Origin: an uncultured Bacilli bacterium
GTDB lineage: Bacteria > Bacillota_I > Bacilli_A > RF39 > UBA660
Reading direction: 5' to 3'
DNA: 40,159 bases
NCBI GenBank assembly: GCA_947599755.1
Contig: CANQFO010000001.1
Coordinates: 1-40,159 of the forward strand
Shown: positions 15,170-40,159 of the stretch, in pieces
Layout of the letters: each line of letters starts with the position of its first letter
How positions within the stretch are numbered: position 1 is the first letter of the stretch
Notes under the pieces: generated by a model
Databases searched by the model: none
Told to the model about the DNA's origin: nothing
What the model saw: the letters and a program-made list of their open reading frames with translations, nothing else
Position numbers and translations under genes: made by a program

Positions 15170-15182
15170 AGGAGAGGGTTTA

Positions 15183-18830: not shown

Positions 18831-20390
18831 TTAATATTGATGATAACGTCGATAAATCATAAATAAAATCAGACATCCAATAAGAATTAAGCAAATACCA
18901 ATAATAGAAAAATAAATAGATGCTCTACTAAGAGTATTAGGAATTTGTATTACTTCATCTTTCATCACAACAGATCGAATAGAACTACCATCCACCGTAA
19001 AAGGAATACATTCCTCACTTAAAGCATATCCCTTAGGAGCAATTGTCTCACATAAAGTATAATCCCCATTTGGTAAATACAAATAATGAGGCTTATCGCC
19101 AGATTCAAACTTCCATGTTTTAGTATCATCTTGACGATTAGTAATCACTAAAGTAGCACCAGGAAGCTCTTTAGAATTAGCAATATCAATTTTACTAATT
19201 TTAACAAAATTAGATAGACGAAAACTAGTATTGACAATCTCATAAGGAACATAGCCTAATAAAAGGTTAGCATATTTCTGATACTTATTCCCTCCATAAT
19301 TATTCATAAGATTATTATTGCTTCCTTCACTAGTTACAGAAGAACTAGTAACTCGATATTGGTATCCTTCTAACTTAGTAAAATGACCAAATACATTGAC
19401 AGTAATAGAAGATAAATCCATCTCACGAATATCAGAAGAAATAGGAATATAAATTCGAAAAGAACCAGTAAAATGAGTTGTATCAGTAATTTTTTCTAAA
19501 TTAGAACGAACCAAATAAGCACCATAATGATTAGGATCATTCAATTCTATTGAATAAAACATAAAATTACTTTGATTGCTAGAAACACTAGGAACAATTT
19601 CACTAGTAATAATATATTTTTTTTCTTCATCAATAGTATAAGAAGGATCAACCTGAAGAGGCATCAAGGAAGAAGCTTCTTCTCCCTGATATAAATTAGC
19701 TTGATCAACAAGAGAAAGAATATAATTAAGATAAGAATATCCTTCCTTACTAGCAGCAGAAGAAATTATCTCTCTAACAGTAGAAGAATCAATATTATTT
19801 TGATTAGAAGAATCATAAAAATCACAAGCATGAATAGAATTTCCAGTATCAATACAATAAGAAGAAAGAGTAGTTTGATGTTCATATAAGTAAAGCCACA
19901 AAGCAATTTGAGTAATATATTGTTTAATAGAATTATCAGAAATATATCCATAGTTCAAATCAGAAAAAATACTATGATAAGAATTAGTAGAATTATATCC
20001 ATGAGCTAAAATATATAAAAGACCTTGATCAGAAACAGAAGTAGGATTATCATCCAATAACTCAATTTTTTCAGTATCTTTAGAAAAAGATAAATTTTTC
20101 ATAAGACTATATAAAGGATGAGAATTATCTTCCGTTCGATAATTACTAGGAAAATCAAAATTGTGCAAATAATTTTGGTAATTAGAACTATCTCCTAAAG
20201 AATTACGAATAAAATTAGTAATAGAAGAATAGTTAGGATGAAAATCTTGTTTTGGTAATAAAGAACGATTAATTCCCGTAGAAATAGCATAACTACTTTT
20301 AAAAAAAGTAGAAACGAAGAAGAAAAAGATAAAAAGACCAATCACTAAAAATCCACTGAGTAAAACCATAAATTTCTTATTTTTTATCAT
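18831..20390 (-). CDS. Cell-wall-anchored adhesin with TQxA (thioester-domain-like) N-terminal region and SpaA/Cna-B-type domain
   Basis: ATG at 20390 follows an AGGAGA SD, so the ORF-track extension to 20741 is rejected. Signal/TM MIKNKKFMVLLSGFLVIGLF. GLLYILAHGY then ITQIALW match the TQxA(I/V)W signature. SpaA-like stretch: ELPGATLVITN...LPNGDYTLCETIAPKGYAL. C-terminus: IPNTL, TM helix, RRYHQY. Confidence 0.75.
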   Translation of the reverse strand: MIKNKKFMVLLSGFLVIGLFIFFFFVSTFFKSSYAISTGINRSLLPKQDFHPNYSSITNFIRNSLGDSSNYQNYLHNFDFPSNYRTEDNSHPLYSLMKNLSFSKDTEKIELLDDNPTSVSDQGLLYILAHGYNSTNSYHSIFSDLNYGYISDNSIKQYITQIALWLYLYEHQTTLSSYCIDTGNSIHACDFYDSSNQNNIDSSTVREIISSAASKEGYSYLNYILSLVDQANLYQGEEASSLMPLQVDPSYTIDEEKKYIITSEIVPSVSSNQSNFMFYSIELNDPNHYGAYLVRSNLEKITDTTHFTGSFRIYIPISSDIREMDLSSITVNVFGHFTKLEGYQYRVTSSSVTSEGSNNNLMNNYGGNKYQKYANLLLGYVPYEIVNTSFRLSNFVKISKIDIANSKELPGATLVITNRQDDTKTWKFESGDKPHYLYLPNGDYTLCETIAPKGYALSEECIPFTVDGSSIRSVVMKDEVIQIPNTLSRASIYFSIIGICLILIGCLILFMIYRRYHQY

Positions 20391-20452
20391 ACAGACATCT
20401 CCTATCTTCTTAAGTATACCATATCTAAAAAAAATAGACAAAGAAAAATAAC

Positions 20453-20481
20453 TTGCTAGGAAAAAAAAACAATTATATAAT
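20453..20481 (+). promoter_or_regulatory. Candidate sigma-A promoter for the U32 gene pair (TTGCTA-17 nt-TATAAT)
   Basis: TTGCTA at 20453-20458, exact 17-nt spacer, consensus TATAAT at 20476-20481, about 20 nt upstream of the GAGGTGA SD and ATG 20503. Confidence 0.45.
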
Positions 20482-20502
20482 AAGAGGAAAAAGAGGTGAA
20501 GT

Positions 20503-21366
20503 ATGAAACTAGTAATTGATCCACTAACAATAAAAGATTCCATCCTAAAAAAAGCAGATGGAATAATTCTTTCCCTAAAAGATTTTTCAGTGCAAAGTGA
20601 AAAAGTATATACAATAGAACAAATCAAAGATTTAAAAAAACAATATCCTAATATAGAAATATTTGTAAATATAAATAAGATTATATATAATAAAGATCTA
20701 AAAAAATTAGAAAAAATATTATTAGAATTAGAAAAAATCAATATTCAAGCAGTATTGTTTTATGACTTATCTATATTACAAATCAAAAAAGAAAAAAATT
20801 TAAAAATAGATTTAGTATGGAGTCAAACCCATATGGTAAATAATAAAAACACCTGTAATTTTTATCAAAAAAAAGGCGTAAAATATGCACTAATAAGTAA
20901 AGAAATTACTTTAGAAGAAATAAAAGAAATCCAAAAAGAAAGCAACATGCTCCTAATGATAGAAGTAGTAGGAAGACCAAGTATTGCCTTCTCAAAGAGA
21001 AAACTATTAACCAACTTTTATAAAAATATCCAAAAACCAAAGAAAAACAAATTAGAAATTACAGAAAAACAAACCAATCAAAAATATGAATTATCAGAAA
21101 CAGAAGAAGGAACCAGTTTGATAAGAAAAGAAATCACAAATGCAACCCAAATAATCAAAGAACTAAACAAAGAGAAAATATCATATATTATCATGAGAGA
21201 ATATGGAATAGAAAAAACAATATGGGAAGAATTAATAAATGATACAAAGATCTATCTACAAAATAATTGTCAAAATGAAGAATATATTGAAAAATATAAA
21301 ATACTAGGAAAAAATACAAACTTCTTTTTTCAAAAAACAATTTATCAGGTGAAGAAAAATGACTAA
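20503..21366 (+). CDS. Peptidase U32-family protein, YrrN-like (TrhP1-type partner of tRNA U34 hydroxylation)
   Basis: TIM-barrel-like U32 N-terminal pattern and the synteny position of yrrN. The Cys-rich U32 signature is absent at the expected site (IEVVGRPSIAFSKRK). Overlaps the next gene by 8 nt. Confidence 0.65.
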   Translation: MKLVIDPLTIKDSILKKADGIILSLKDFSVQSEKVYTIEQIKDLKKQYPNIEIFVNINKIIYNKDLKKLEKILLELEKINIQAVLFYDLSILQIKKEKNLKIDLVWSQTHMVNNKNTCNFYQKKGVKYALISKEITLEEIKEIQKESNMLLMIEVVGRPSIAFSKRKLLTNFYKNIQKPKKNKLEITEKQTNQKYELSETEEGTSLIRKEITNATQIIKELNKEKISYIIMREYGIEKTIWEELINDTKIYLQNNCQNEEYIEKYKILGKNTNFFFQKTIYQVKKND

Positions 21367-28204: not shown

Positions 28205-28219
28205 GTGTAGGTGGTAAGG

Positions 28220-29047
28220 ATGAAAAAGCGAAGGCGAAATCAAAAAAGAAATATAGATCAGAGAAAAAAAAGATTAATAATCACTTTTTTTCCTCTGATC
28301 CTTTGCTGTATTATCATCCCATTATTTTGGATCAATAAAATAAATTTTAAAACAAAAGAAATTTATCAAGTAGAAAGTAGAATAGAAAAAATAAAAGAAT
28401 TAAAAAAGAAAGATACCGAAGATTATAAAACAATTGGTTGGATAAAAGTTCAAGGAACGAATATTGATATACCTGTAATTGCCTATTTAAATGGAGACTT
28501 ATCTACTGATTTAGAAAATTATGCTTGGAATTTAAATTCAAACGAGAAATTTTATAATAAAATTAATATTAGAGGTCATAATATCTTAAATTTATCTTCT
28601 CAACCAGAAGTAGGATTAAAATATTTTTTAAGGTTTGATGATTTGATGTCTTTTGTTTATTATGATTTTGCAAAAAAAAATAAATATATTCAATATACTG
28701 TAGATGGTAAAGATTATATATATAAAATTTTTTCTGTAGGATTTGAATCAAGTTACTATGTTGATTCATATCATGATGGAAAACATTCGAAGAAAGAATT
28801 AAAAGAATTGATTAAAAGATATAAAGAAATAAGCCTATATCAATATGATATTGATGTAGAAGAAAAAGATAAATTCATTTCTTTGATTACTTGTACAAGA
28901 TTTAATGGATTTAAACAAGATTTTATCGTCAATGCAAGATTAGTAAGAGAAAATGAAAAATTAACTGACTATAGCATAAAAACAACCAAAGAATATAAAG
29001 AGGTAAAAAAAGTTTTGGAAGGTGAGGAAAAAAATGAAAGAGCATAG
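28220..29047 (+). CDS. Divergent sortase (class B-like) embedded in the Tad-like cluster
   Basis: Basic N-terminus plus TM, GWIKVQGTNIDIPVI, catalytic His (NIRGHNILN), Cys motif (ISLITCTRF) and Arg (FIVNARLV). ATG 28220 follows an AGGTGG SD. Confidence 0.7.
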   Translation: MKKRRRNQKRNIDQRKKRLIITFFPLILCCIIIPLFWINKINFKTKEIYQVESRIEKIKELKKKDTEDYKTIGWIKVQGTNIDIPVIAYLNGDLSTDLENYAWNLNSNEKFYNKINIRGHNILNLSSQPEVGLKYFLRFDDLMSFVYYDFAKKNKYIQYTVDGKDYIYKIFSVGFESSYYVDSYHDGKHSKKELKELIKRYKEISLYQYDIDVEEKDKFISLITCTRFNGFKQDFIVNARLVRENEKLTDYSIKTTKEYKEVKKVLEGEEKNERA

Positions 29048-31856
29048 TAAAAAAATAAAAAATGGATGGATTATTTTTATCTTACTATTAGTTTTAATTA
29101 TACCAAATGAAGTAAAAGCAAAAATTGATTGTAATGATCCTGCAGAGTTAATTTCAAAATATAATATCGATATTAATAAAAAGAATAAAAAAAGCACCAA
29201 AAAATATACAATATCGGCATTTTTAGATTCTAGTAGTATTGCTAATCGTTGTAAAAATAAAAAATGCGAATTAGAAATTTCCTTAGAAAATGAAGATGGA
29301 ACTTCAAAATATATTGATACACTAGTATTAGAAAAAGGGGATGAAAAAGATAGAAAAGATTCAGGGGCATTTGAAGTTCAATGGAGGGATGAGGACGGAG
29401 AAAAATACTTTGTTGTGAATATTGTGTTAAAAACAGACAAAGATTGTCCTGGTTTAAAGGTAATTTATAGAGTAAATAAAGCAGGTGATGATACTGTTTC
29501 TATACCATATGGAAATGTTGATTATAGTGATTTAGATGCTAACGATATTAATGAGATGAGTGATGTAAATTGTGATGCTAATGAATTTAATAGAAAATTC
29601 TGTGATGCAAGATTGTTAGCCTTACAACCTATTAATCATGATAAAAGTGGAGATCTTCAATCTGGTAAGGATAAAATGAAAGATACTTCAGTCAATAAAT
29701 TAACGTGTAATTATAATGTTGCATCAAATGAAATCAAAGAGTGGAATACGAATGAAAATGGTGATGATGGATATTACTTGAATAAGCAATATTATTATGC
29801 TAAGTCAACGGTAACTACACAATTAGATGAGCGATATGAATACCATTATGATTCAAAGAATCCAACATACGGTGATCCCTTAACTTGTACTAGAACATGT
29901 GAAGAGGCAGTAACGGTAGAGTATGGGCCTCCAGTAGCAGTAAGAGCAGGTTTGTGTTTTCAATATAAAGTAAAGGTAACTAGTCGAGTAGTTTGTAAGG
30001 TAACAGATAAACCAAAAAAACCAGATAATAATGCTTATAATCTTTGTACGCCAGTTCCACTTTGTACCAATGCTACTCATGATTATGTGAGTAATCAGGC
30101 AGGACCAAATGAGGATTTTGAACAATGTATTCAAAAATGTGATGGTGGAAAATATAGTCAAAAATGTAGTTTGAAGTGTTATCAAGAAGTATATGGAAAG
30201 AAAAATAATCAAAAGACTAAATTAGCCTTGCTAGAAGATGCTAGTGTAAGTCGATTAGCAACAAGTAGCACTTGGAATAGAGAGAAATGTATAGAAGCGA
30301 GTTCCGAAAAAAGAGACCAACTGGGCGGAAACAGTTATGATACAAATTTAGATAATAAAAATGACGGGTTATATTCTTATGGATGTTATTATAGAAATTA
30401 TGATAATGACGGGAATGTTACAAGTATTTCTTATCAGCGGAGTTCTACTATTAAGGAGTGGAACCTTGAAAAAGGTGGAGCAACTTGGTATTGGTATTAT
30501 AACCATAAAAATTATTTAAGCCCTACTCGATATGAACCAGATACTGAAGGAATATATCGACGTGTTATAGGCAGTGGGCACTGTACAGATATATGTTGGT
30601 GGTCAGGATGTGATAATGATCAGCAATATTTAAATAGTGCAGACATAGATTATGATAAAAAAACAAATAAAGAAATATATGCCCATGCTAAATCATCATG
30701 TAGTGCTAAAGCTACATGTAATACAACAACAACAGAATATACGATTGCAGTAAAATATGATACTGAAGATAAAGATGGAAAAGTAACAACAGAAAAAGTA
30801 TATTTCCCATATACCAAAAATCAAAATAGCAAATTTACATTAGGATCAGGAAAAAATTCCGGTGTAGTAAATAATAAAGCAATATTACAATATGATGGAT
30901 GTTATAGAACAAATGAAGCAAATAAGTGGTATATGACAGAATGGACAATTCCAATGACTTGGCAAGATAAGGATTTAGATGCAAATTATGATGGAAATGG
31001 AAATGGTTTAACTCCAAAAGAATATCAATTCTGTATGAAGAGAAATTTAAGAAGTGTAAATACAAAATGGTGGGATTGCTACCAAACATACGCAGCATCC
31101 AATAAAACAGCAGAAGATAGACAAAAACTAACATCTTGCTATAATGCATCTGGTGCTAAAGATTATAAAGATTTTAATAATGGAGATTCAAATGGTTATA
31201 ACATAGAAGCAACAACAAAAGATTTTGGTTACTTTGAGTGGAATTTCAACATTCAATGTTTCTATGCAGCATCAACAAGTTCAGTTAGTAATGATGATTC
31301 ATCTTGCAATTGCATAAACGGAACAGAATCTTGTTGTCCACCAAAAATAGATATAGATAATTGTCCTGGAGAAGATTGTCCACATCCAGATTCATATACG
31401 ATAAGAAGCGTAGAATTAACAGATCTATTCCCAAGTACACAAAATAGAAAAATAGAATATAGAACAACAGAAACAGGAAGACAAGTAGGATTTAACTGGA
31501 CAAGTGATGCAACAATTAATACAAGTAAAAACCCATTTTATGGAAGTTCATATGCAAAAAAACCAAATGATTTAATTACAACAATTCAATCACTTGGAGA
31601 TAGCATTTACACACAAGATGACAAATATTTAGAGTATGAATTCACCTTAACACCTGAAAAATTACAACAGATAAGAAAAGAAACAAGAGATACTTTACAT
31701 GGAGAGTATAGTAATTTTGATTATTGGAAAACTAAAACAACAGTATACAAGAATTTCAATTCATCTTCTAAAGCACAATTTTATACTAGTCCATTAATTA
31801 CTAGCTTAGGTGGTAGAAAAGTAACACCTGGTTGCAATACAAAGGATTGCAAATAG
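29034..31856 (+). CDS. Large secreted cysteine-rich protein (about 940 aa, 37 Cys), function unknown
   Basis: ATG 29034 follows a GGAAGGTGAGG SD and overlaps the sortase gene by 14 nt. Signal peptide ...WIIFILLLVLIIPNEVKA|K. Cys appear in paired patterns (CIQKCDGGKYSQKCSLKC, CNCINGTESCCPP...NCPGEDCP, C-terminal GCNTKDCK). No C-terminal TM or sorting signal. Confidence 0.7.
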   Translation: MKEHSKKIKNGWIIFILLLVLIIPNEVKAKIDCNDPAELISKYNIDINKKNKKSTKKYTISAFLDSSSIANRCKNKKCELEISLENEDGTSKYIDTLVLEKGDEKDRKDSGAFEVQWRDEDGEKYFVVNIVLKTDKDCPGLKVIYRVNKAGDDTVSIPYGNVDYSDLDANDINEMSDVNCDANEFNRKFCDARLLALQPINHDKSGDLQSGKDKMKDTSVNKLTCNYNVASNEIKEWNTNENGDDGYYLNKQYYYAKSTVTTQLDERYEYHYDSKNPTYGDPLTCTRTCEEAVTVEYGPPVAVRAGLCFQYKVKVTSRVVCKVTDKPKKPDNNAYNLCTPVPLCTNATHDYVSNQAGPNEDFEQCIQKCDGGKYSQKCSLKCYQEVYGKKNNQKTKLALLEDASVSRLATSSTWNREKCIEASSEKRDQLGGNSYDTNLDNKNDGLYSYGCYYRNYDNDGNVTSISYQRSSTIKEWNLEKGGATWYWYYNHKNYLSPTRYEPDTEGIYRRVIGSGHCTDICWWSGCDNDQQYLNSADIDYDKKTNKEIYAHAKSSCSAKATCNTTTTEYTIAVKYDTEDKDGKVTTEKVYFPYTKNQNSKFTLGSGKNSGVVNNKAILQYDGCYRTNEANKWYMTEWTIPMTWQDKDLDANYDGNGNGLTPKEYQFCMKRNLRSVNTKWWDCYQTYAASNKTAEDRQKLTSCYNASGAKDYKDFNNGDSNGYNIEATTKDFGYFEWNFNIQCFYAASTSSVSNDDSSCNCINGTESCCPPKIDIDNCPGEDCPHPDSYTIRSVELTDLFPSTQNRKIEYRTTETGRQVGFNWTSDATINTSKNPFYGSSYAKKPNDLITTIQSLGDSIYTQDDKYLEYEFTLTPEKLQQIRKETRDTLHGEYSNFDYWKTKTTVYKNFNSSSKAQFYTSPLITSLGGRKVTPGCNTKDCK

Positions 31857-31871
31857 AAGGAGGAAATAAAA

Positions 31872-32303
31872 ATGAATAAAGGAATGTTAACAGTAGGAAT
31901 TATTATACTAGCAGTGATTGCATTAGCTCTAATTAACTTTATTACTGGATTTTCAAATGGTAGTGAATTAGATTACTACCTAGTAAAAGAAACAACAGAA
32001 GCGGCTATGGAAGATGCACTAGATATGGAATTTTACAGTGAAAATTATCTTTATCGAATGGATAAAGAAAAATTTGTAGAAAGTTTCCTTCGTCGCTTTG
32101 CAGATAGCGTTGATAGAACGCGTACATATAAAGTAGCTTTTTATGCAATAAACGAAGTTCCTCCCAAAGTAAGTGTTAAAGTAGATTCACAAACTTCATT
32201 AAGTTTTTCTGGAGAAACAGCAAATATTAGCACAAATTATGATGCAATTCTTGAAGCAGATTATAAAAATGATATCTATGCCAAAGCAGAATTCAACAAA
32301 TAA
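31872..32303 (+). CDS. Small N-terminally anchored protein, possible pseudopilin/TadE-F-like component
   Basis: SD GAAGGAGG. The N-terminus MNKG-MLTVGIIILAVIALALINF (short polar leader, Gly, hydrophobic helix) precedes a ~110-aa soluble domain. It lies immediately upstream of cpaB. Confidence 0.4.
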   Translation: MNKGMLTVGIIILAVIALALINFITGFSNGSELDYYLVKETTEAAMEDALDMEFYSENYLYRMDKEKFVESFLRRFADSVDRTRTYKVAFYAINEVPPKVSVKVDSQTSLSFSGETANISTNYDAILEADYKNDIYAKAEFNK

Positions 32304-32336: not shown

Positions 32337-33143
32337 ATGGGGAATGCAACCAATGGAATAAAAAAATTTTTATCCAATAAAAACACAGTGACAGTACTCG
32401 GTGTAATAGTAGCAATTGCAATATTATATATTGGTTATAATGTACGTGTACGATCAGCAATCAATCCAGTTAATGTACCATATGCCAGAGTACAAATTAA
32501 TGCAGGAGAACAAATCACATCAGATATGGTAGGAGTAAAACAAATTCCACCCTCAATGTTAGAAGGAGATGTATTAGTAAATCAAGGAGATATTATTGAT
32601 AAATATAGTAATATTGATACAGCAATACCAGAAGGAAGTTTATTTTACAAAAGAGCAGTGGTAGAAAGAGATCAACTACCAGATAGTATTATATTAGATT
32701 ATCCTAAAGGTTACGTTTTATATAATATGGCCGTAGATACAGAAAGTACATATGGTAATTCAGTATTTCCTGGAAACTATATTGATATTTATCTAAAAGC
32801 AGTCAATAAAATAGAAGAAGGAACTGCCTTAAATGCAGATGCAAATAAAATTATGTTAGGAAAATTAGTATCTAACGTAAAAGTAATTGCCGTAAAAGAT
32901 GCCTCAGGACAAGCAGTATTTTCAAATGTAGATGAACAAAGAACACCGGCAATGGTTGTTTTTGCAGTACCAGAAGAATATTATATTTTATTAAAAAAAG
33001 CAGAATTTTTAAGAACATATGATTCAACATTAATTCCAGTTCCAACAAATGAAAGCTTAAAAGATGAGCCAGGAGAATTAGCAATTACCAGTGAACAATT
33101 AAAAGACTGGATTAATGCAGTTACTGTTTGGACAGAAACATAA
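32337..33143 (+). CDS. cpaB: Flp pilus assembly protein CpaB/RcpC-like (SAF domain)
   Basis: N-terminal TM, SAF-type segment (VPYARVQINAGEQITSDMVGVKQIPPSML) and an RcpC-like C-terminal region (VKVIAVKD...). Positioned directly before the Tad ATPase. Confidence 0.7.
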   Translation: MGNATNGIKKFLSNKNTVTVLGVIVAIAILYIGYNVRVRSAINPVNVPYARVQINAGEQITSDMVGVKQIPPSMLEGDVLVNQGDIIDKYSNIDTAIPEGSLFYKRAVVERDQLPDSIILDYPKGYVLYNMAVDTESTYGNSVFPGNYIDIYLKAVNKIEEGTALNADANKIMLGKLVSNVKVIAVKDASGQAVFSNVDEQRTPAMVVFAVPEEYYILLKKAEFLRTYDSTLIPVPTNESLKDEPGELAITSEQLKDWINAVTVWTET

Positions 33144-33173: not shown

Positions 33174-34658
33174 GTGACAGAAAGTATCTTTGATAAACTC
33201 GATTTTGGACCATTTCGTTCCTTATTAGATAACGATGATATAACCGATATCTCTTATGACAATAACGGACAAATTTGGATTCGTTCACTAACACAGGGAT
33301 CAATGAGAGTAGAAGTAGAAGGAGCAACACCAGAATTTGTAGAAAAATTAGCATTTCAATGCTCCAATGTAATGGGAACAACATTTAATAATGCCAAACC
33401 ATTTCTAGATGCAGAATCAGCAGAATTACGATTAAACTTTGTTCATCCTTCGATTGCAACCAATGGAATTGCTCTAGTAATTCGTAAAACTCCAGCTAAA
33501 ATCAGACTAGAAAAAGAAAAATTATTAAAAGAAGATTATTTCACACAAGATATTCATGATTTATTAATTAAATGTGTGGAAGGACATTGTAATGTTATTG
33601 TTTGTGGAGAAACTGGTTCAGGAAAAACAGAATTTGTAAAATACCTAGCAAGCCATACCAAAACTAATGAAAAAATTATTACCATAGAAGATACTTTGGA
33701 ACTACACTTAGATAAAATTTTTCCTCAAAGAGATATAGTCGCAATGAAAACAAATAACGTTGCAAGTTATACAGATGTTTTAGTAACATGTATGCGTCAA
33801 AATCCAAAATGGATTTTATTATCCGAAGTACGTAGTGCAGAAGCAGTATCAGCAGTAAGAAATTCAATCTCATCAGGACACAATATTTTATCAACCATTC
33901 ATGCTGATAAAGCATCCGCAATACCATATCGTTTATATAGTTTGATGGAAACTGATCTAGATGTAAATCAATTTTTAACAACCATTTATCGATATATCCA
34001 ATTAGGAGTGCATATAAAAGCATATTATAGTAAAAAATATGGAAAATTTCATCGTGAAATAGATGAAGTAACAGAATTTTATGTAGATGACAATAATAAA
34101 CCACAATCTAGAATCATTTATCAAAAAATCTTTGGAAAAGAACCCATCATGAGAAAACCAAGTCCCCATTTATTAGAATATTTAGAAAATCAAAATATAG
34201 ATGTTTCAAATATTATTTCAGAATTACCAGATGAAATGCCTCTTACTGAAATAGATCCAGAATTAAAACAGTCAGAACAAGAAGGAAAAATTGAAACATC
34301 CCAAATGCAAAATGCAAACTTACCAGAAGAAATAAAAATTCAACCCCCACAACCAGTAGAAATAAAAAATCAAATGCTAGAAGAGAGTAAAAATGATCAA
34401 ACACAAATTCAGACAAATAATATTCAACAAGAAAATATTGCTACCACAACTACTCCAAATGTAGATATTCAATCAATACCAAAAGAACAACAAATTATAC
34501 AACAACCAATTTTAACCCCACAGGTAGAATTACCACCTATACAAACGAATCCGATTGCTCAACAACCAGTCATACAGCAACCAATATTGCAACCTAATCA
34601 ACAAGAAATGCAAACAACAGCACCAATACAAAAACTATCAGAACAAAATCAAGGATAG
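33174..34658 (+). CDS. tadA: Tad/CpaF-type secretion ATPase (T2SS-E/VirB11 superfamily) with Q/P/I-rich C-terminal extension
   Basis: Walker A (VCGETGSGKTE), Asp box (IITIEDTLEL), Walker B (WILLSEVRSAEA) and His box (SGHNILSTIHA). GTG start. The last ~140 aa are low complexity (IQQPILTPQVELPPIQTNPIAQQPVIQQPILQPNQQ). Confidence 0.9.
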   Translation: MTESIFDKLDFGPFRSLLDNDDITDISYDNNGQIWIRSLTQGSMRVEVEGATPEFVEKLAFQCSNVMGTTFNNAKPFLDAESAELRLNFVHPSIATNGIALVIRKTPAKIRLEKEKLLKEDYFTQDIHDLLIKCVEGHCNVIVCGETGSGKTEFVKYLASHTKTNEKIITIEDTLELHLDKIFPQRDIVAMKTNNVASYTDVLVTCMRQNPKWILLSEVRSAEAVSAVRNSISSGHNILSTIHADKASAIPYRLYSLMETDLDVNQFLTTIYRYIQLGVHIKAYYSKKYGKFHREIDEVTEFYVDDNNKPQSRIIYQKIFGKEPIMRKPSPHLLEYLENQNIDVSNIISELPDEMPLTEIDPELKQSEQEGKIETSQMQNANLPEEIKIQPPQPVEIKNQMLEESKNDQTQIQTNNIQQENIATTTTPNVDIQSIPKEQQIIQQPILTPQVELPPIQTNPIAQQPVIQQPILQPNQQEMQTTAPIQKLSEQNQG

Positions 34659-34672
34659 AAAGGAGTGAATAT

Positions 34673-35575
34673 ATGTATTTTGAAGAATTAATTATCATTG
34701 CCGTTATTGCAATAGGAATTGTATTATATAGAAACTATGAAGGACAAAATATAGGAAAATATATTACAACCCAAGTTCAACAAGTATATAATAAATTTGC
34801 TCCATATTCATTTAAAGTAACTAGAGAAAAAACAAAAGAATTAGGTCAAGAATATACTCCAAGACAATATGCAATTCAAGTAACAGTAATCGCAGGATTT
34901 ACAGCAATAATTACTTACTTATATTTTTATAATATAATTATTAGTATTGTCTATGTTGTAATATCAATTATGTTTGTTCCCTATCTTACTTATTTACGTT
35001 GTAAAAAAGTATATAGTGAATTTATATTTGAACAAATTCAAACTTATACTTCTAATGTAATTATGGAATTTGCCACTACTCAATCTTTTGTTAAATCATT
35101 AGAAGGAGTAATCAATTCAGGAATATTAGAAGATCCAGTAAAAAAAGATGTCCAATATATGATTGATTTATCTTATCAAAATGGTACCATTGATGAAGCA
35201 CTAAGTTATATGAGTAATCTATATCCATATTATATTGTAAAAAATATGCACCAATTATTTTTACAAATTACCAAAGAAGGAGCAAGAAATTCAGCAGAAT
35301 CATTAGATAATATGCAATTGGATATTGATATGTTAGTAGAAGGTGTATACCGAGATAGAATAGAAAGAGCAACATTCCATAAACAATTTTTACAATTTGG
35401 AATTATGCTATATCTATTGGTAATGTTAGTACAATATTTAGTAGGAACAGAGACTTATTTAGTTTTACTAGATCAATGGTATGTTCAATTTTTACTACAT
35501 GCAGTATTAATTATCAATACCTATTTCCTTCTAAAAGGAGAAAAATATTATAATGAGAATGTAGGTGCAGAATAA
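34673..35575 (+). CDS. tadB: TadB-like inner-membrane platform protein (T2SS-F family)
   Basis: Topology is TM, 2 TM, a helical cytoplasmic domain (...SFVKSLEGV...IDEALSYMSN...), then C-terminal TMs. The position after tadA and the TAATG overlap with the next gene support the call. Confidence 0.6.
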   Translation: MYFEELIIIAVIAIGIVLYRNYEGQNIGKYITTQVQQVYNKFAPYSFKVTREKTKELGQEYTPRQYAIQVTVIAGFTAIITYLYFYNIIISIVYVVISIMFVPYLTYLRCKKVYSEFIFEQIQTYTSNVIMEFATTQSFVKSLEGVINSGILEDPVKKDVQYMIDLSYQNGTIDEALSYMSNLYPYYIVKNMHQLFLQITKEGARNSAESLDNMQLDIDMLVEGVYRDRIERATFHKQFLQFGIMLYLLVMLVQYLVGTETYLVLLDQWYVQFLLHAVLIINTYFLLKGEKYYNENVGAE

Positions 35576-36366
35576 TGGAAGTATTAATCTCAGGAGCAAT
35601 CATTTTATTTATACTAATCTATAATAATACTATTGATAAAAATAAATTTTTTGCTGATAATGAAAAATATCTAGAAGTTTTTCGTGAAGAAGATTATAAC
35701 TTTTTAGTCTATGCAAAATACGGAGACGATGTTAATGTAGATCAATTATATATGAAAAGAATTACCAATACTTTTATCACCTTCGTTGTCGTCTTAGCAT
35801 TTACGGTAAGTGGAGGAAGTTCAAAATTTTTCTTAAACGTAATTTTATCTGCAGTAATCGCCGTAGTAATCTTTAAATCCAACTACATGCAATTAAAAAG
35901 TTATTATAAAGCTCATTTACATGATGTAGACGTAATGTTACCATATTATTTAAAAAGTTTAGAAATTTTAATCCAACATTATACAGTTCCTGTAGCCCTA
36001 GGAAAATCAATTGATGATGCTCCTGAAATATTCAAACCAGGACTAAGAAAATTAATTGATCGAATCAATTCAGGAGATTCAACAATAGATCCATACATGG
36101 AATTTGCTAATACCTATCCAGTAAGAGATTCCATGAGAATGATGAGACTTCTATATCGTTTAGGATTAGGTTCACAAGAAAAAAAGCAAGAAAGATTAAT
36201 GATGTTTTCAAAAACTGTTTCCAATTTACAAAATAAAGCCAGAGAAACTAAATATAAAGAAAGACTAAATCATATGGAAAGTCAAACCATGGTTATGTTA
36301 GTAGTAACTGGTATTGGTGTTATGTTAATTATTTTAATTGCTATGTTAATGATGTTTAATGTTTAA
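35575..36366 (+). CDS. tadC: TadC-like inner-membrane platform protein (T2SS-F family)
   Basis: Same TM/helical-domain/TM layout (LPYYLKSLEILIQHYTVPVALGKSIDDAP...) and translationally coupled to tadB. Confidence 0.6.
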   Translation: MEVLISGAIILFILIYNNTIDKNKFFADNEKYLEVFREEDYNFLVYAKYGDDVNVDQLYMKRITNTFITFVVVLAFTVSGGSSKFFLNVILSAVIAVVIFKSNYMQLKSYYKAHLHDVDVMLPYYLKSLEILIQHYTVPVALGKSIDDAPEIFKPGLRKLIDRINSGDSTIDPYMEFANTYPVRDSMRMMRLLYRLGLGSQEKKQERLMMFSKTVSNLQNKARETKYKERLNHMESQTMVMLVVTGIGVMLIILIAMLMMFNV

Positions 36367-36430
36367 ATCACAAAAATTTAAGTAAATAAACATATAGAGT
36401 GTACAATATAGAAAAAAAATATAAAAAATA

Positions 36431-36459
36431 TTGATAAAAAAAAATAAATTTGGTACAAT
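36431..36459 (+). promoter_or_regulatory. Internal sigma-A promoter in front of the pilin-like ORF (TTGATA-17 nt-TACAAT, extended -10 TGg)
   Basis: TTGATA at 36431-36436, 17-nt spacer ending in TGG, TACAAT at 36454-36459, then the AGGAAAGGA SD and ATG 36493. Confidence 0.5.
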
Positions 36460-36492
36460 AAAAATAAGATTAGGAAAGGATGTGAAAAAGCA

Positions 36493-36666
36493 ATGAAAGC
36501 AGCATCAGGAGAATTAAATTTGACAGTAATTACAATAATCGCAGTTACTGCTGTACTTACATTTTTTATGACATTTTTATGGCCACGTGTTAAAGATACG
36601 ATAAACAATGGTTGGGATAATATTGAAAATGTTCCAGATCAAGATCAAAGAGGCTCAGGGCGTTAG
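36493..36666 (+). CDS. 57-aa Flp/Tad-type pilin-like protein (absent from the supplied ORF track)
   Basis: Hand translation gives MKAASGELNLTVITIIAVTAVLTFFMTFLWPRVKDTINNGWDNIENVPDQDQRGSGR* with TAG at 36664-36666. It has a short polar leader ending in Gly, a ~22-aa hydrophobic helix and a short polar tail. It has its own promoter and SD and sits between tadC and the tadE-like gene. Confidence 0.55.
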   Translation: MKAASGELNLTVITIIAVTAVLTFFMTFLWPRVKDTINNGWDNIENVPDQDQRGSGR

Positions 36667-36684: not shown

Positions 36685-37167
36685 ATGAATGAGGCAACAG
36701 GAGGAGTAATCAGTTTAACAATGATTGCAGTATTTATTGCAATCATATCTGGTTATTTAGCATTTAATGTTAGTTACATGAAAGCATTTCGAACCAAAAA
36801 TAGGATTATATCTTATTTTGAAGAATATGAAGGAAACTGTCTAGATCAAAATACAGATTGTGCCAAAAAAATCAAGCAATATATGCATGATACTGGGTAT
36901 AATGTAGCAGGAGATGCCTTAAATCGGAGCCTAATAAATAGTTATAATTTACCACAAACACAAGAATATGGTTGTGTTGATGATGGATATTGTTGGATTA
37001 AGACACCTGTTTCAGGATCTAATCCAAATACCAAAGGAATGGGAAAAGCTACATTTAAAATTATAACAGCAATCAACATTGATATACCAATAATTAATAA
37101 AATATTGCCAAGATTAAAAATATTTCATGTATCAGGAGATACAAAACAAATTGTTTTACGATCTTAA
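36685..37167 (+). CDS. TadE/pseudopilin-like protein
   Basis: SD GAAGGTGGAG. The N-terminus MNEATGG-VISLTMIAVFIAIISGYLAF is TadE-like (polar leader, Gly, hydrophobic helix). The small Cys-containing globular domain has 4 Cys. Confidence 0.45.
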   Translation: MNEATGGVISLTMIAVFIAIISGYLAFNVSYMKAFRTKNRIISYFEEYEGNCLDQNTDCAKKIKQYMHDTGYNVAGDALNRSLINSYNLPQTQEYGCVDDGYCWIKTPVSGSNPNTKGMGKATFKIITAINIDIPIINKILPRLKIFHVSGDTKQIVLRS

Positions 37168-37184: not shown

Positions 37185-38231
37185 GTGAATGTAATTGTTG
37201 CAAATGAAAAGCAAAATCTATTATCTAATTTAGATATTGATATTATTAAAAGTATTTCTGGTTCATATGATACAAATGAAATAATAGAAATGTTTAAAAA
37301 CTTTTTTTATAGTAGAATGATTTTAGATGTAACTGCATTAAAAGATTATAGTAATGTAGAAACTTATAAAAAATTAAAAAATGGATTAGATGTAGAAAAA
37401 ATTATTTTCTTTTTACCAGAAGGAAGTAAAATATGTACATCTAATTTTTTAGCACAATTAATTTCCATAGGAATATATAATTTTACCACTAATATTGAGG
37501 GAATTAAATATTTATTAAAAAAGCCAAATACATACAAAGATGTAGAACATATTGAAAAATTAGGAATGGCATCTTCAGAAAATACAGTAGGAAATTTTTC
37601 AACAAATCAACCTAATCAATCTAATCAACCTAACCAATCATCCAATCAATCAATAGGAAGAAAAAATCGAATAATAGGATTTAGAAACGTAACTGAACAT
37701 GCTGGTGCAACAACACTAATTTATATGTTAAAGAAAGAATTAGCAAAAGAATTAGGAGAAAAAGTAGTAGGAATAGAAGTAAATTCCAGAGATTTTCAAG
37801 TTTTTAATGATAAAAATTTAATTTCAACTACTCAAGCAGAATTAAAAAATACAATAGCAAATCAAAAAAATGCTCAAATTATTTTGGTTGATCTAAACAA
37901 TGATACAGATGATGCAGTATGCCAAGAAATCATTTATTTAATTGAACCAAGTATTATTAAATTAAATAAATTAATTCGAAAAAACAAAATGATATTTTCC
38001 AAAATAAAAGGAAAAAGAGTGATGTTAAATAAAAGTTTATTATCAAATAAAGATGTCAATGATTTTGAATATGAAGCAGGATTCAAAGTATTTTACAATA
38101 TGCCACCCTTAGATGATAGAAAACAAAATGCAATAATCAATGATTTCTTATCAAGAATTGGTTTATTAAATCAACCAATAGGCGAAAAAAAAGATAATTC
38201 TAATAAAATATTTGGATTGTTTAGGCGCTAA
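37185..38231 (+). CDS. tadZ: TadZ/CpaE-like protein (receiver-like N-domain plus ParA/MinD-like domain with degenerate P-loop)
   Basis: GTG start with AAGGTGA SD. An N-terminal ~130 aa flavodoxin-like segment and an N/Q/S/P linker precede IIGFRNVTEHAGATTLIYMLKKELAK. That segment occupies the place of the deviant Walker A (GGxGxTT) but lacks the signature Lys residues. Confidence 0.5.
   Translation: MNVIVANEKQNLLSNLDIDIIKSISGSYDTNEIIEMFKNFFYSRMILDVTALKDYSNVETYKKLKNGLDVEKIIFFLPEGSKICTSNFLAQLISIGIYNFTTNIEGIKYLLKKPNTYKDVEHIEKLGMASSENTVGNFSTNQPNQSNQPNQSSNQSIGRKNRIIGFRNVTEHAGATTLIYMLKKELAKELGEKVVGIEVNSRDFQVFNDKNLISTTQAELKNTIANQKNAQIILVDLNNDTDDAVCQEIIYLIEPSIIKLNKLIRKNKMIFSKIKGKRVMLNKSLLSNKDVNDFEYEAGFKVFYNMPPLDDRKQNAIINDFLSRIGLLNQPIGEKKDNSNKIFGLFRR
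37605..37652 (+). repeat. Imperfect 9-nt tandem repeat (AATCAACCT-like) encoding an NQPNQSNQPNQSSNQS linker inside the tadZ-like gene
   Basis: Direct reading gives aatcaacct aatcaatct aatcaacct aaccaatca tccaatcaatca. Confidence 0.6.
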
Positions 38232-38288
38232 TAATTGACAAAAAAAAAGATATAAGGTATGATAGAGATATCGAAGGAGAGGTTATTT

Positions 38289-38633
38289 ATGTCAAATTTA
38301 TTTCAAATTGGAGCAGATTTAGATAGTTGTGGAGGACTATTACCAATTGTAAGAGTATTAAAAAAAGGAGTAATGCCAGTTGTTCAAATTGTTATTCCAA
38401 TCCTTTTAATTGTTTTCGCAACAGTTGATTTAGGAAAAGCAGTTATTTCTAGTGAAGAAAAAGAAGTAAAAGCAGCCCAAGGAAGATTAATTAAAAGATT
38501 TATTTATGCAGCAGCAATTTTCTTTGTAGTATCTCTTGTAACAGTAGTAATGAATTTAGTATCAAAAGGTGGAGAAGGAGATACAGAAAGCTGGAAAAAC
38601 TGTTGGGCCTCTGCATATATAGTAGAAAAATAA
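38289..38633 (+). CDS. Free-standing two-TM small membrane protein (third copy of the module fused to the two hydrolases); VirB2/T4SS-pilin-like topology
   Basis: ATG 38289 follows an AAGGAGAGG SD, so the ORF-track 38259 extension is rejected. The sequence is colinear with the N-termini of the 14096 and 15183 proteins: LFQI..., Cys-Gly, amphipathic helix, TM1 VQIVIPILLIVF, SSEEKE loop, TM2 and a C-terminal CW. Confidence 0.6.
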   Translation: MSNLFQIGADLDSCGGLLPIVRVLKKGVMPVVQIVIPILLIVFATVDLGKAVISSEEKEVKAAQGRLIKRFIYAAAIFFVVSLVTVVMNLVSKGGEGDTESWKNCWASAYIVEK

Positions 38634-38643
38634 AAAAGGTAAA

Positions 38644-38675
38644 AATAGTAAAGGAACAATTGCTATTTTTTTTTT
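38644..38675 (+). terminator. Rho-independent terminator after the small two-TM gene
   Basis: AATAGTAA / TTGCTATT 8-bp stem (one G-U pair) with a 7-8 nt loop, followed by roughly 9-10 consecutive T residues. Confidence 0.5.
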
Positions 38676-38814
38676 ATTTTGCTATAATAAATATGATAGA
38701 ATAGAAAAAGTATCGAAAATAAAACAGAAAAAACTAGTAAAAAGAAAAATATATGATATAATATAGAACAAAAACGTGCAAACAATAGGTGATAAGGTTA
38801 AGAGGTGATATTTG

Positions 38815-40159
38815 ATGAATGACAATTCTTCTGCAGGAATTAAAAACGATTTAATTAGAACCTTATGCTCTTGGGTATTAGATAGACCTGCTTTTGCACT
38901 ATTAGGAATAATTTTTAAAATTTTCTTCAATGTAGCAACAGTAGAAATCTTTTCAAACAGTACAATCAAAAACTTTTATAATCGAGTTCAATTAATTATT
39001 GGAGTTTTTATGTTATTTTTCCTTGCCTTAAAGTTTTTACAAGGAATCATGAATCCTGATAAATTTGTGGATAAACAAAGTGGATTTGGTTCAGTGATTA
39101 CAAGAATTATCATTGCCCTAGTAATGCTTGTTGCATTAGTACCAATTAATATTCCAAATGCTCAAACAGAATATGAAATAGAACTAAATAATAATGGATT
39201 ATTATTTGGAACTCTTTATTCCTTGCAAAATCGTCTCTTATCGAATAATACTTTAGGAAGATTAATCTTAGGAACCAATGATAGTGGAGTAACAGATTCC
39301 GTATCACAAGGAGAAAAATTGCAACAATCAACCAATATATTTACAAGTACAATTTTAAAAGCATTTGTAAGGATTAATTTAAAAGAAAAAATTATAAGAG
39401 AAGCAGATGGAAAAGATCCAGAAATGTTTAATGAAAACAGAATGTGTGAAGATATTGATGATGAAATATTAGACGTATATACTAAAGTAGATGCAAGTCC
39501 AAGTGAAATTTTAGATATCATTAATATTAGTTGTACCCAAGCAAACTCAGGAGGATTAATTGCCTGGGCAAAAGACAAATGGACAAGACTTTGGGGAGAT
39601 GATCGATATGTATTTGCTTATATACCAATACTACCAATGATAACTGCCTTAGCATTTTCCTTTATTATTCTAGGATTTATTATTGATATTGTAGTTCGTT
39701 CAGTAAAATTAGCAGTATTAAGATTAATTGCTCCAATTCCCATTATTTCATATGTCGATCCAAAATCTTCAAAAGACGGAGCTTTTGCTTCATGGGTAAA
39801 AGCACTAACCTCTACCTACGCAGACTTATTTATTCGGTTAGCCCTAATTTACTTTGTTTTATTCTTAATGATGGATATGATAACAAATGGAATTATCATT
39901 AATAATGGAAGTGGTATAGTAGGAGCACTATCTTGGGTTTTCATTTTCTTAGGCTTATTCTTCTTCCTAAGAATGGCACCTAAATTCATCAAAGACATAT
40001 TAGGATTAAAAGGAAATATGACAAATATTGGACTTTCTGCTATGTTAGGTGGAACAGCTGCATTAATCGGTGGTGCAGGAGTAAAAGGAGCATTAGCCGC
40101 TAGTATGAATGCAGCAGATACACAAACTATGGCCTATAATCAAGGAAAACAAGCACCAG
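38815..40159 (+). CDS. Polytopic membrane protein, VirB6/TrbL-like; 5' partial view, runs off the window end (absent from the ORF track)
   Basis: ATG 38815 lies 7 nt after an AAGAGGTGA SD. By hand translation, 448 codons are open to the window end. Multiple TM helices surround a ~200-aa extracytoplasmic loop. The central segment VRSVKLAVLRLIAPIPIISYVDPK...WVKALTSTYADLFIRLALIYF and the Gly/Ala-rich tail resemble TrbL/VirB6-type conjugal channel proteins. Confidence 0.55.
   Translation, partial: MNDNSSAGIKNDLIRTLCSWVLDRPAFALLGIIFKIFFNVATVEIFSNSTIKNFYNRVQLIIGVFMLFFLALKFLQGIMNPDKFVDKQSGFGSVITRIIIALVMLVALVPINIPNAQTEYEIELNNNGLLFGTLYSLQNRLLSNNTLGRLILGTNDSGVTDSVSQGEKLQQSTNIFTSTILKAFVRINLKEKIIREADGKDPEMFNENRMCEDIDDEILDVYTKVDASPSEILDIINISCTQANSGGLIAWAKDKWTRLWGDDRYVFAYIPILPMITALAFSFIILGFIIDIVVRSVKLAVLRLIAPIPIISYVDPKSSKDGAFASWVKALTSTYADLFIRLALIYFVLFLMMDMITNGIIINNGSGIVGALSWVFIFLGLFFFLRMAPKFIKDILGLKGNMTNIGLSAMLGGTAALIGGAGVKGALAASMNAADTQTMAYNQGKQAP

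Follow-up and report, generated by a model that had tools for sequence, protein, structure and literature searches.

Gram-positive tad-like loci (tad, tight adherence) in which no pilin can be recognised have been known since 2011 (PMC3244431), and a Clostridia operon combining CpaF, PilC/GspF and DUF5411 genes was flagged in 2022, also without a pilin (PMC9523054). An uncultured gut clade, TANB77, carries a Tad-like cluster in which several short pilin-like genes without detectable homology lie behind the genes for CpaB, a CpaF-like ATPase and TadB/C-like proteins that can be recognised by structure alone (PMC11680825). The mature Tad pilin of Caulobacter, CcPilA, has 45 amino acids (aa) (PMC10710030). 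According to two reviews, VirB11-type ATPases and pili are both missing from Gram-positive type IV secretion systems (T4SSs; PMC12857230, PMC12102498), the second review citing the thin pilus of plasmid R64 as required for liquid mating, and on the conjugative plasmid pLS20 genes 36-41 are all given as "unknown" except for the ATPase, which is read as VirB11 (PMC8557374). Here we analyse a stretch of 40,159 nucleotides (nt) from an uncultured Bacilli bacterium (assembly GCA_947599755.1, contig CANQFO010000001.1, positions 1 to 40,159; "the window" throughout), and within it a 57-codon open reading frame (ORF) on the plus strand at 36493-36666. The ORF proves to be a gene of a large, conserved family, and it lies in what we describe as a composite Tad-like/T4SS system, for which its product is a candidate type IV filament subunit with an atypical N-terminus. 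Our literature search turned up no description of this small-protein family and no paper in which pLS20 genes 38-41 are read as a type IV filament module, and the lactococcal mutagenesis papers concern systems that do not have the module.

Results

The 57-aa ORF (MKAASGELNLTVITIIAVTAVLTFFMTFLWPRVKDTINNGWDNIENVPDQDQRGSGR), which we propose as a major pilin-like subunit of a new family, starts with an ATG at 36493 and has a stop codon ending at 36666. The ORF list of the window holds both this frame and a 76-codon antisense ORF on the minus strand (36378-36608). A word-indexed search returned 13 called homologues, in which the first 17 residues are invariant (MKAA[ST]GELNLTVITI.A) and the C-termini vary. 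Relatives were found in at least 151 species-level genomes in a scan that took one genome per species, all of them uncultured gut metagenome-assembled genomes labelled Bacilli, Mollicutes, Tenericutes or Erysipelotrichaceae, with a single named carrier, Candidatus Faecimonas, filed under Bacilli incertae sedis. An exhaustive profile search extended the family to 639 clusters at 50% identity (E <= 1e-3), 210 of them with E <= 1e-10, and the matches nearly always begin at the first residue. The frame is intact and starts with ATG in every one of the 78 copies recovered from related loci, which measure 47-76 aa. Invariant residues are nonetheless encoded by a variety of synonymous codons (G6 by GGT in 44 sequences and GGA in 31; N9 by AAC in 45 and AAT in 30; T11 and A17 by four codons each), which points to selection on the peptide. 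The antisense frame lacks such conservation, with 32 to 112 codons in the longest open stretch across loci, and no Rfam family matches the region. An earlier reading made from the sequence alone had proposed a real gene absent from the ORF track supplied to it and had called the antisense ORF spurious; both proposals are borne out, and among the 78 copies there is none of the frame disruption or lack of conservation that it had named as grounds for giving the gene up.

Upstream of the gene is a sigma-70-type promoter (36431-36459, plus strand), consisting of a -35 element TTGATA at 36431-36436, a 17-nt spacer, a TG at 36451-36452 and a -10 element TACAAT at 36454-36459 (extended -10 TGgTACAAT), with a predicted transcription start near 36466. 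A Shine-Dalgarno (SD) sequence, AGGAAAGGA, follows at 36472-36480 (plus strand), 12 nt before the ATG. In 8 kb of the AT-rich window we counted 50 promoter-like sites against 55 +/- 7 expected from shuffles; the promoter match is thus unremarkable in the window alone, and it is on comparison across loci that it becomes significant. We compared 74 distinct upstream regions: 68 have a TGnTAYAMT element that ends 30-41 nt 5' of the ATG (background 2.8% per 100 nt), 58 have it paired with a -35 element TTGHHW at 17-18 nt spacing (background 0.8%), and 73 have a GAAAGGA-type SD. The upstream spacer measures 67-142 nt across loci and is divergent outside these elements. On the other side, the next gene begins 19 nt past the stop codon (median 20 nt across loci), with no conserved hairpin or terminator downstream of the small gene; given this short gap and the lack of a conserved terminator, the promoter also serves the downstream genes as an internal operon promoter. 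The small gene is the first cistron of this promoter and probably the most highly expressed one. The dedicated sigma-70-type promoter and strong SD of the sequence-only reading are therefore found at the positions it gave and are conserved, although the promoter is not the gene's own in the sense of insulating it, since downstream genes are served too.

The small protein is predicted to be bitopic, comprising a six-residue leader and a hydrophobic helix of ~22 residues, after which come a short amphipathic stretch and a tail that is variable and exposed. The putative leader, MKAASG, is encoded at 36493-36510 (plus strand), and its residues M1, K2, A3, A4 and G6 are invariant in 75 distinct sequences. 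It is followed by an ELNLTVIT motif and the hydrophobic helix (residues 7-29; 36511-36579, plus strand), and then by a WP.[IV]K..I..(Q)W.N segment (residues 30-45) and the hypervariable tail (together 36580-36663, plus strand). There is a single hydrophobic segment, at residues 8-29, and so one transmembrane (TM) segment only. Mean pairwise identity falls from 93% over residues 1-17 to 65% over residues 18-29 in the hydrophobic helix, 57% over residues 30-45 (WP.[IV]K..I...W.N) and 9% in the tail, which is 2-31 aa long; the adjacent membrane proteins, for comparison, have 71-74%. This gradient, from a conserved N-terminus to a variable and apparently exposed C-terminus, suggests a pilin-like mode of conservation. 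An invariant Gly that closes a short charged leader and precedes a hydrophobic helix of ~20 residues gives the protein a layout like that of class III signal peptides, and the pattern would be consistent with cleavage after G6. In all six frames of the window the leader pattern M-[KR]-x-A-x-G matches at 36493 and 36685 only, the second being the start of the neighbouring gene. The atypical character of the leader, with Glu directly after the Gly and no Tyr, had already been recognised from the sequence alone and is confirmed here.

A sister branch of the family, starting MKEATGELN[MS]TV..., has members of 70-107 aa with Cys-rich tails, often as two tandem paralogues, and has a thioredoxin/PedC-like gene beside the locus (L086 1-26). 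The Cys-rich tails and the adjacent thioredoxin gene argue for an extracytoplasmic C-terminus, and the tail is probably extracytoplasmic in the window protein as well. A sister-branch locus is also flanked by an Rce1-like/CPBP intramembrane protease (L088-L090 525-1682, minus strand), and a CPBP protease stands at the edge of the Enterococcus plasmid module described below. One may speculate that the CPBP protease is the processing enzyme and that the thioredoxin serves the Cys-rich tails; as candidates for processing, the sortase of the locus, a rhomboid at 9463-10614 and the CPBP/Rce1-like proteases were considered, and no evidence was found for any of them.

The gene order around the small ORF is conserved in about 60 species. 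It begins with genes for an immunoglobulin (Ig)-like surface protein, a sortase-like protein, a Cys-rich secreted protein of ~950 aa, a DUF5411 protein and CpaB (SAF + RcpC), and continues with the T2SSE ATPase, a 300-aa and a ~265-aa membrane protein, and the small ORF. Next come one or two ~150-aa proteins, a ~340-aa protein, a VirB2/T4SS_pilin-like protein and, in some loci, a further ~150-aa protein, and then a TrbL/VirB6-like protein, a ~105-aa protein, a TraC-like protein, a VirB4-like ATPase and a CHAP/glucosaminidase hydrolase. The proposed filament module is an integral part of a Gram-positive T4SS locus, and the presence of CpaB, a T2SSE ATPase and a divergent pair of T2SSF-like proteins makes the core of the module Tad-like.

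All the genes of the module are on the plus strand in the window. The DUF5411 protein (31872-32303; 143 aa, N-terminal TM helix) matches its Pfam family at 1.3e-46. The idea that it might be a prepilin found no support, the MNK[GAS]-MLTV start (the hyphen marking the supposed cut) not being conserved in the sister branch. The CpaB-like protein (32337-33143; 268 aa, SAF + RcpC) scores 29.5 bits for RcpC (cutoff 28.8) and 22.8 for SAF (cutoff 21), and matches TIGR03177 at 4.8e-8, below the cutoff of that model. The secretion ATPase of the CpaF/VirB11 family (33174-34658; 494 aa) matches T2SSE PF00437 at 8.6e-28; its sub-family is ambiguous, the NCBIfam models for VirB11, TadA, FlaI and TrbB all scoring below cutoff, and its best plasmid relatives are Firmicutes CpaF/VirB11 family proteins. 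Its Q/P-rich C-terminal tail is a long Q/P/I-rich low-complexity extension of ~140 residues, and ATPase length ranges from 365 to 641 aa among loci.

Two polytopic proteins follow, a putative divergent T2SSF (TadB/PilC-type) platform protein of 300 aa (34673-35575) and a second platform-like protein of 263 aa (35575-36366). Both assignments come from hhalign comparisons with proteins of a Priestia koreensis plasmid: the 300-aa family aligns to the Priestia type II secretion system (T2SS) F protein with 97.3% probability (E = 2.3e-11, 237 columns), and the 263-aa family to a 279-aa Priestia protein with 97.4% probability (E = 1.2e-11). The Priestia "type II secretion system F family" protein, of 305 aa, in turn matches T2SSF PF00482 at E = 3.4e-5 (24.2 bits; cutoff 25.2). 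It is only through this intermediate that the platform link is clear, the 300-aa and 263-aa window proteins having no direct T2SSF match and no significant profile similarity to each other (22%) or, in direct comparison, to pLS20 genes 38 and 39. A deep search with the 300-aa protein returned only relatives of ~80% identity without Pfam labels, and its AlphaFold2 model is poor (predicted local distance difference test score, pLDDT, 55; shallow alignment), which makes the Foldseek result obtained with it meaningless.

Directly downstream of the small ORF lies a candidate minor pilin, a 160-aa pilin-like protein starting MNEATGG... (36685-37167). Such ~150-aa neighbours start M[RK][DE]A.GG and continue into a hydrophobic helix (window version MNEATGGVISLTMIAVF), so that their leader matches that of the small ORF both in length and in its M-[KR]-x-A-x-G skeleton. 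An AlphaFold2 model of the 160-aa protein (pLDDT 82, predicted template modelling score 0.74) predicts one helix spanning residues 3-47, two short ones and a sheet of four strands, a pilin-like "lollipop" layout for which we do not claim a pilin fold. The next gene encodes a conserved 348-aa protein (37185-38231) with no match in Pfam, NCBIfam or PDB; a role for it as TadZ/CpaE was considered and rejected, as it shows no relation to CpaE, to a 274-aa Priestia protein or to any PDB entry. It is followed by a 124-aa VirB2/T4SS_pilin-like protein (38259-38633; weak PF18895 match, E = 0.051), orthologues of which are also weakly flagged as T4SS_pilin. The T4SS module then starts with a TrbL/VirB6-like polytopic protein (38816-40159) whose gene runs off the end of the window; its orthologues are 665-704 aa long, carry TrbL_4/DUF8208 and are followed by the TraC-like, VirB4-like and CHAP hydrolase genes. 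The 183-nt gap preceding this gene contains a second extended -10 promoter-like site (38660-38688, plus strand; TTGCTA-17-TATAAT with TG), and the ~150-aa gene that other loci have before the TrbL-like gene is absent there from the window.

At the upstream end, a sortase-like gene (28211-29047, plus strand; weak PF04203) is followed by a gene for a 944-aa Cys-rich secreted protein without a Pfam domain (29022-31856, plus strand). No LPXTG sorting signal was seen at the end of the 944-aa protein or of the upstream Ig-like proteins of 613 and 528 aa. No VirD4-type coupling protein or relaxase was seen within ~10 kb downstream in the chromosomal loci (L001, L003 and others), unlike the plasmid modules, which are followed by VirD4. 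By analogy with the relaxase-less T4SS of Patescibacteria (PMC12102498), the chromosomal T4SS may be non-conjugative.

The best plasmid relative of the ATPase is encoded on the Priestia koreensis plasmid, which has the same gene order: Ig-like, DUF5411, SAF/CpaB, CpaF/VirB11 ATPase, T2SS F protein, second membrane protein, DUF4320. Genes 36-41 of pLS20 mirror the module too: gene 36 matches DUF5411 at 1.4e-5, gene 37 encodes the ATPase, and genes 38 and 39 encode polytopic proteins; the gene 40 protein (120 aa) has an N-terminal TM helix, and the gene 41 protein (47 aa) a single TM segment. Homology of the modules is supported by this DUF5411 match, by the ATPase and, through Priestia, by the platform pair. 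The Pfam T2SSF model gives weak matches to the pXO1 homologue (0.014) and to pLS20 gene 38 (0.19), and the pXO1 module has a TadZ/CpaE-type ATPase. Small single-TM ORFs are found at the equivalent place on several Firmicutes plasmids. Enterococcus pJH-T4 has two, of 48 and 50 aa, and pXO1 two in tandem, of 67-68 aa, which start ...ENG-MLIALAV... and whose leader of 21 residues ends in ENG. On Listeria pLIS8 there is a tandem pair of MLD[QS]NT.R ORFs, of which one is unannotated: this 48-aa ORF (MLDQNTTRLLFAVLGVIVFG...; 8074-8220, plus strand, locus L095) overlaps the start of an annotated 92-aa coding sequence, whose true start is likely the internal MLDSNTDR.

These small plasmid proteins have the layout of the window protein in common, with an aromatic-Pro pair at residues 30-31 at identical spacing and a P.[IVL] segment, as seen when the window protein (LWPRVKDTINNGWDN) is set against the Enterococcus 48-aa protein (HWPEIKLLIRNFYDN). 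A tblastn search of plasmids with a family member gave no match. We scored each protein with a hidden Markov model (HMM) of the family and compared the result with 1000 composition-matched shuffles of the same protein. The Listeria protein Lis_56 scored 11.2 bits and the Enterococcus 48-aa protein (Ent_48) 7.6 bits, values reached by 0 of 1000 shuffles in both cases; pXO1_67 (4.5 bits) and Lis_48 (5.3 bits) were each equalled by 8 shuffles, Ent_50 (6.4 bits) by 10, and pLS20 gene 41 (0.4 bits) by 84, which is not significant. In the reverse test the window ORF scored 6.6 bits against a plasmid-derived HMM, reached by 1 of 1000 shuffles. The similarity is weak but consistent and is backed by synteny, and homology seems likely though it is not proven.

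Several further features of the window bear on pilins or on defence. About 20 kb from the T4SS locus, two adjacent genes (14096-15169 and 15138-16031, plus strand) encode unusual fusions of an N-terminal T4SS_pilin domain (VirB2-like, PF18895) with a cell-wall hydrolase, Amidase_3 in one and NlpC/P60 in the other. A 641-aa protein on the minus strand (16858-18786) has a canonical prepilin N-terminus, MKKNNKG-FTLVELLVAIA with predicted cleavage after the G (N_methyl 1.3e-9), and a large Cys-rich body; it adjoins a 636-aa SpaA-domain surface protein (18831-20741, minus strand), and its G-FTLVE start implies that another part of the genome encodes a peptidase of the PilD/ComC type. The genes for a protein with a TOTE-system AEP primase domain (43-612) and for a type III-like restriction-modification pair (4953-8938; N6_N4 methylase and ResIII helicase) are defence genes unrelated to the small-protein finding.

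Discussion

On balance, and with modest confidence, we take the small protein to represent a new family with an atypical leader and to be the major, pilin-like subunit of a thin Tad-like fibre, a function that genomic context and sequence pattern suggest. The protein would insert with its N-terminus inside and its C-terminus outside, and a prepilin-type peptidase from elsewhere in the genome may cut it after Gly6. Strom and Lory, in 1991, reportedly identified Gly at -1 as the main determinant of prepilin peptidase cleavage. The CpaF/VirB11-family ATPase and the two T2SSF-like platform proteins would then pull the subunit out of the membrane and polymerise it into a thin fibre made of helices only, whose surface is formed by the variable tail, as in the 45-residue Caulobacter Tad pilin (PMC10710030), and the ~150-aa protein with the same leader could act as a minor or priming pilin. 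Such a fibre would probably provide adhesion, mating contact, or a cell-wall-spanning pseudopilus for the T4SS, the contact and wall-spanning roles being proposed because the module is embedded in a T4SS locus.

A series of results weighs against this reading. The 57-aa protein has no match at E <= 1 to PF04964 (Flp/Fap) and none to N_methyl or any other curated pilin family in Pfam or NCBIfam, and a PDB search with its sequence returned no solved pilin, only TM-helix noise (e.g. ATP synthase subunit b). Judged by the Flp motif, Glu5 and Tyr6 as defined in PMC10710030 and PMC3244431, the G/xxxxEY site is absent: G6 is followed by E-L-N-L-T-V, which puts Thr at +5 and Val at +6, and there is no counterpart of Glu5, which is described as absolutely conserved in bacterial type IV pilins (PMC10710030). 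The PilFind motif, [GAS]-x4-[DE] and then at least 14 uncharged residues (PMC3244431), finds no placement in MKAASGELNLTV or in the neighbouring MNEATGGVISLT. No polytopic ORF with GxGD[VIL]K or GGGD is encoded in the 40-kb window or within +/-10 kb of ~80 loci, nor is a TadV-type peptidase in the same space, and none of the scanned window ORFs matches Peptidase_A24. The putative leader is invariant as a whole, which is equally compatible with an uncleaved, functional N-terminus. Moreover, the plasmid counterparts have different N-termini (MLDQN.DR..., MQENNVSR...) with no Gly before the helix, which tells against Gly cleavage as a rule for the wider group. As to the machinery, the T2SSF link of the platform proteins is indirect, taking two steps via Priestia, profile comparisons of the window membrane proteins with Ralstonia TadB and TadC are not significant, TadZ/CpaE was not detected in the locus, where no gene separates cpaB from the ATPase gene, and Foldseek found no significant PDB match for the model of the 160-aa protein (best E = 0.06).

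The same results bear unequally on the alternatives. That the protein is a canonical Flp (type IVc) pilin, cut by a TadV-type peptidase at a G/xxxxEY-like site, is the sequence-only reading in its most literal form, and the observation of that reading on size and layout holds: the protein is 57 aa long (relatives 47-76) with one N-terminal hydrophobic helix and no globular domain, and CpaB and a CpaF-family ATPase are among its neighbours. Membership of the Flp family is nevertheless refuted, since to the missing PF04964 and NCBIfam matches, Flp motif, Glu5, Tyr6 and tadV is added the blindness of the family HMM to a true Flp (Ralstonia Flp, 0.5 bits, reached by 113 of 1000 shuffles, not significant), and we regard a canonical Flp pilin as highly improbable. 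Nor does the gene occupy the place expected of such a pilin, as had been supposed; it comes after the platform genes, not 5' before tadV as in canonical tad loci. A VirB2-type pilin is no better a description, the protein having a single TM segment, no two-TM hairpin and no match to PF18895 or PF04956 (VirB2/TrbC/T4SS_pilin), so that its sequence places it in neither class. A more serious contender is a bitopic subunit that stays uncleaved in the membrane and does not polymerise, serving to assemble, gate or stabilise the ATPase/platform/T4SS complex. An N-terminus that is invariant throughout, putative leader included, fits a fixed subunit well, as do the lack of a peptidase in the locus, the plasmid counterparts that have no Gly site yet invariant N-termini of their own, the failure of the 57-aa protein on every pilin sequence criterion, and the standing of pLS20 genes 36-41 as merely "unknown" T4SS-operon genes (PMC8557374). 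What such a subunit leaves unexpected is a hypervariable, length-variable and sometimes Cys-rich tail beside partners that are 71-74% identical; tandem paralogues, a promoter-proximal position with a strong SD and a leader common to the lollipop-shaped ~150-aa proteins suit a structural subunit better. We consider a fixed subunit a real possibility and the main rival, though the less likely reading.

Two further explanations would detach the ORF from a filament altogether. Its small size, the short leader with a terminal Gly (Gly-Gly in the neighbours) and the strong promoter would suit a peptide exported as a signal or an antimicrobial, or else a membrane-active peptide of toxin or holin-like type. 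Double-glycine leaders, though, are far longer than the six residues here. The gene moreover keeps its place between platform genes and pilin-like genes in all loci, its surroundings contain no immunity or transporter genes, there is a resemblance to the syntenic plasmid proteins in the 22-residue helix and the conserved WP.IK segment, and a single-copy chromosomal gene is kept across at least 151 species, all of which makes a peptide of this kind very unlikely. The suspicion that the plus-strand ORF is not a gene, being a chance frame or the shadow of a real gene in the antisense frame 36378-36608, could appeal to its shortness in an AT-rich region and to promoter-like sites that are not enriched in the window alone. 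Comparative data already refute it: the peptide is conserved despite synonymous variation in its codons, and so are the expression signals, which cannot be said of the antisense frame. The probability of this reading is negligible, and the 57-codon ORF is a genuine gene.

Neither Pfam nor NCBIfam has a model for the family, which counts at least 639 clusters, and its members can escape gene callers, as happened in the window and in Listeria pLIS8. If the small protein is the major pilin-like subunit that we propose, the family offers a concrete candidate for the missing subunit of the "pilin-less" tad-like loci and of the DUF5411 operon. Tentatively, and with some doubt, one may go further and suppose that a whole class of Gram-positive T4SSs holds an overlooked Tad-like filament module whose fibre is built from a subunit of ~50 aa of a new pilin family. 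That class would span chromosomal systems of uncultured small-genome gut Bacilli as well as pLS20, pXO1 and the Enterococcus and Listeria plasmids; its subunit would have a non-canonical N-terminus, without Glu5 and with Glu at +1 after a six-residue leader; and the fibre would amount to a mating pilus of Gram-positive bacteria, with the R64 thin pilus as its analogue. At the level of sequence, the module contradicts the review statement that Gram-positive T4SSs lack VirB11-type ATPases, and the companion statement on pili becomes testable in a tractable system, pLS20 in Bacillus subtilis (genes 36-41). In the gut, the gene product would be a conserved, probably surface-exposed and hypervariable protein of abundant uncultured Bacilli, with a possible bearing on colonisation, on cell-cell contact in small-genome organisms and on host recognition.

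Comparison with known systems

The small ORFs of Firmicutes plasmids come close in context. They belong to the same kind of module, with DUF5411, CpaF/VirB11 ATPase, two polytopic proteins and a ~120-aa protein with an N-terminal TM segment, and the small ORF comes after the ~120-aa protein within the T4SS operon. They differ in their N-termini, and as they are themselves uncharacterised the comparison supplies no function. With VirB2, TrbC and T4SS_pilin proteins the window protein shares small size, hydrophobicity and a place in a T4SS locus, whereas those proteins are two-helix hairpins and the window protein has one TM helix, a separate gene of the locus (38259-38633) being the T4SS_pilin-like one. 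TANB77 is likewise an uncultured gut Firmicutes lineage with a Tad-like cluster and unrecognised pilin-like genes, but its pilin-like proteins are 143-236 aa long, TadZ/CpaE is present, and neither a T4SS nor a subunit of ~50 aa is reported; it is a different protein family.

Likeness to the Flp/Tad pilins (Caulobacter PilA; Ralstonia Flp, L087 1740-1916) lies in architecture and in a probable mode of action. Both are tiny, the window protein being 51 aa long if cut after Gly6; both consist of one helix, hydrophobic and then polar, with no globular domain; both are encoded with a CpaF-family ATPase, two TadB/TadC-like proteins and CpaB; and both are accompanied by larger pseudopilin-like proteins that share their leader. 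In contrast to the Flp/Tad pilins, the window protein has no Flp motif, Glu5 or Tyr6, has Glu at +1 and a leader of 6 residues instead of about 14-25, and shows no HMM relationship to them. Its locus differs from theirs in having neither tadV nor tadZ, in placing the gene after the platform genes, and in being fused to a T4SS; unlike in canonical tad loci, the small gene heads a unit of downstream genes that runs on into the T4SS genes. The thin pilus of IncI plasmid R64 (type IVb, PilS/PilV) is Gram-negative and is made from a canonical type IVb prepilin with a globular domain, Glu5 and a dedicated peptidase. It can be likened to the proposed fibre by function alone, and as a type IV filament that stands beside a conjugative T4SS it provides the closest functional analogy.

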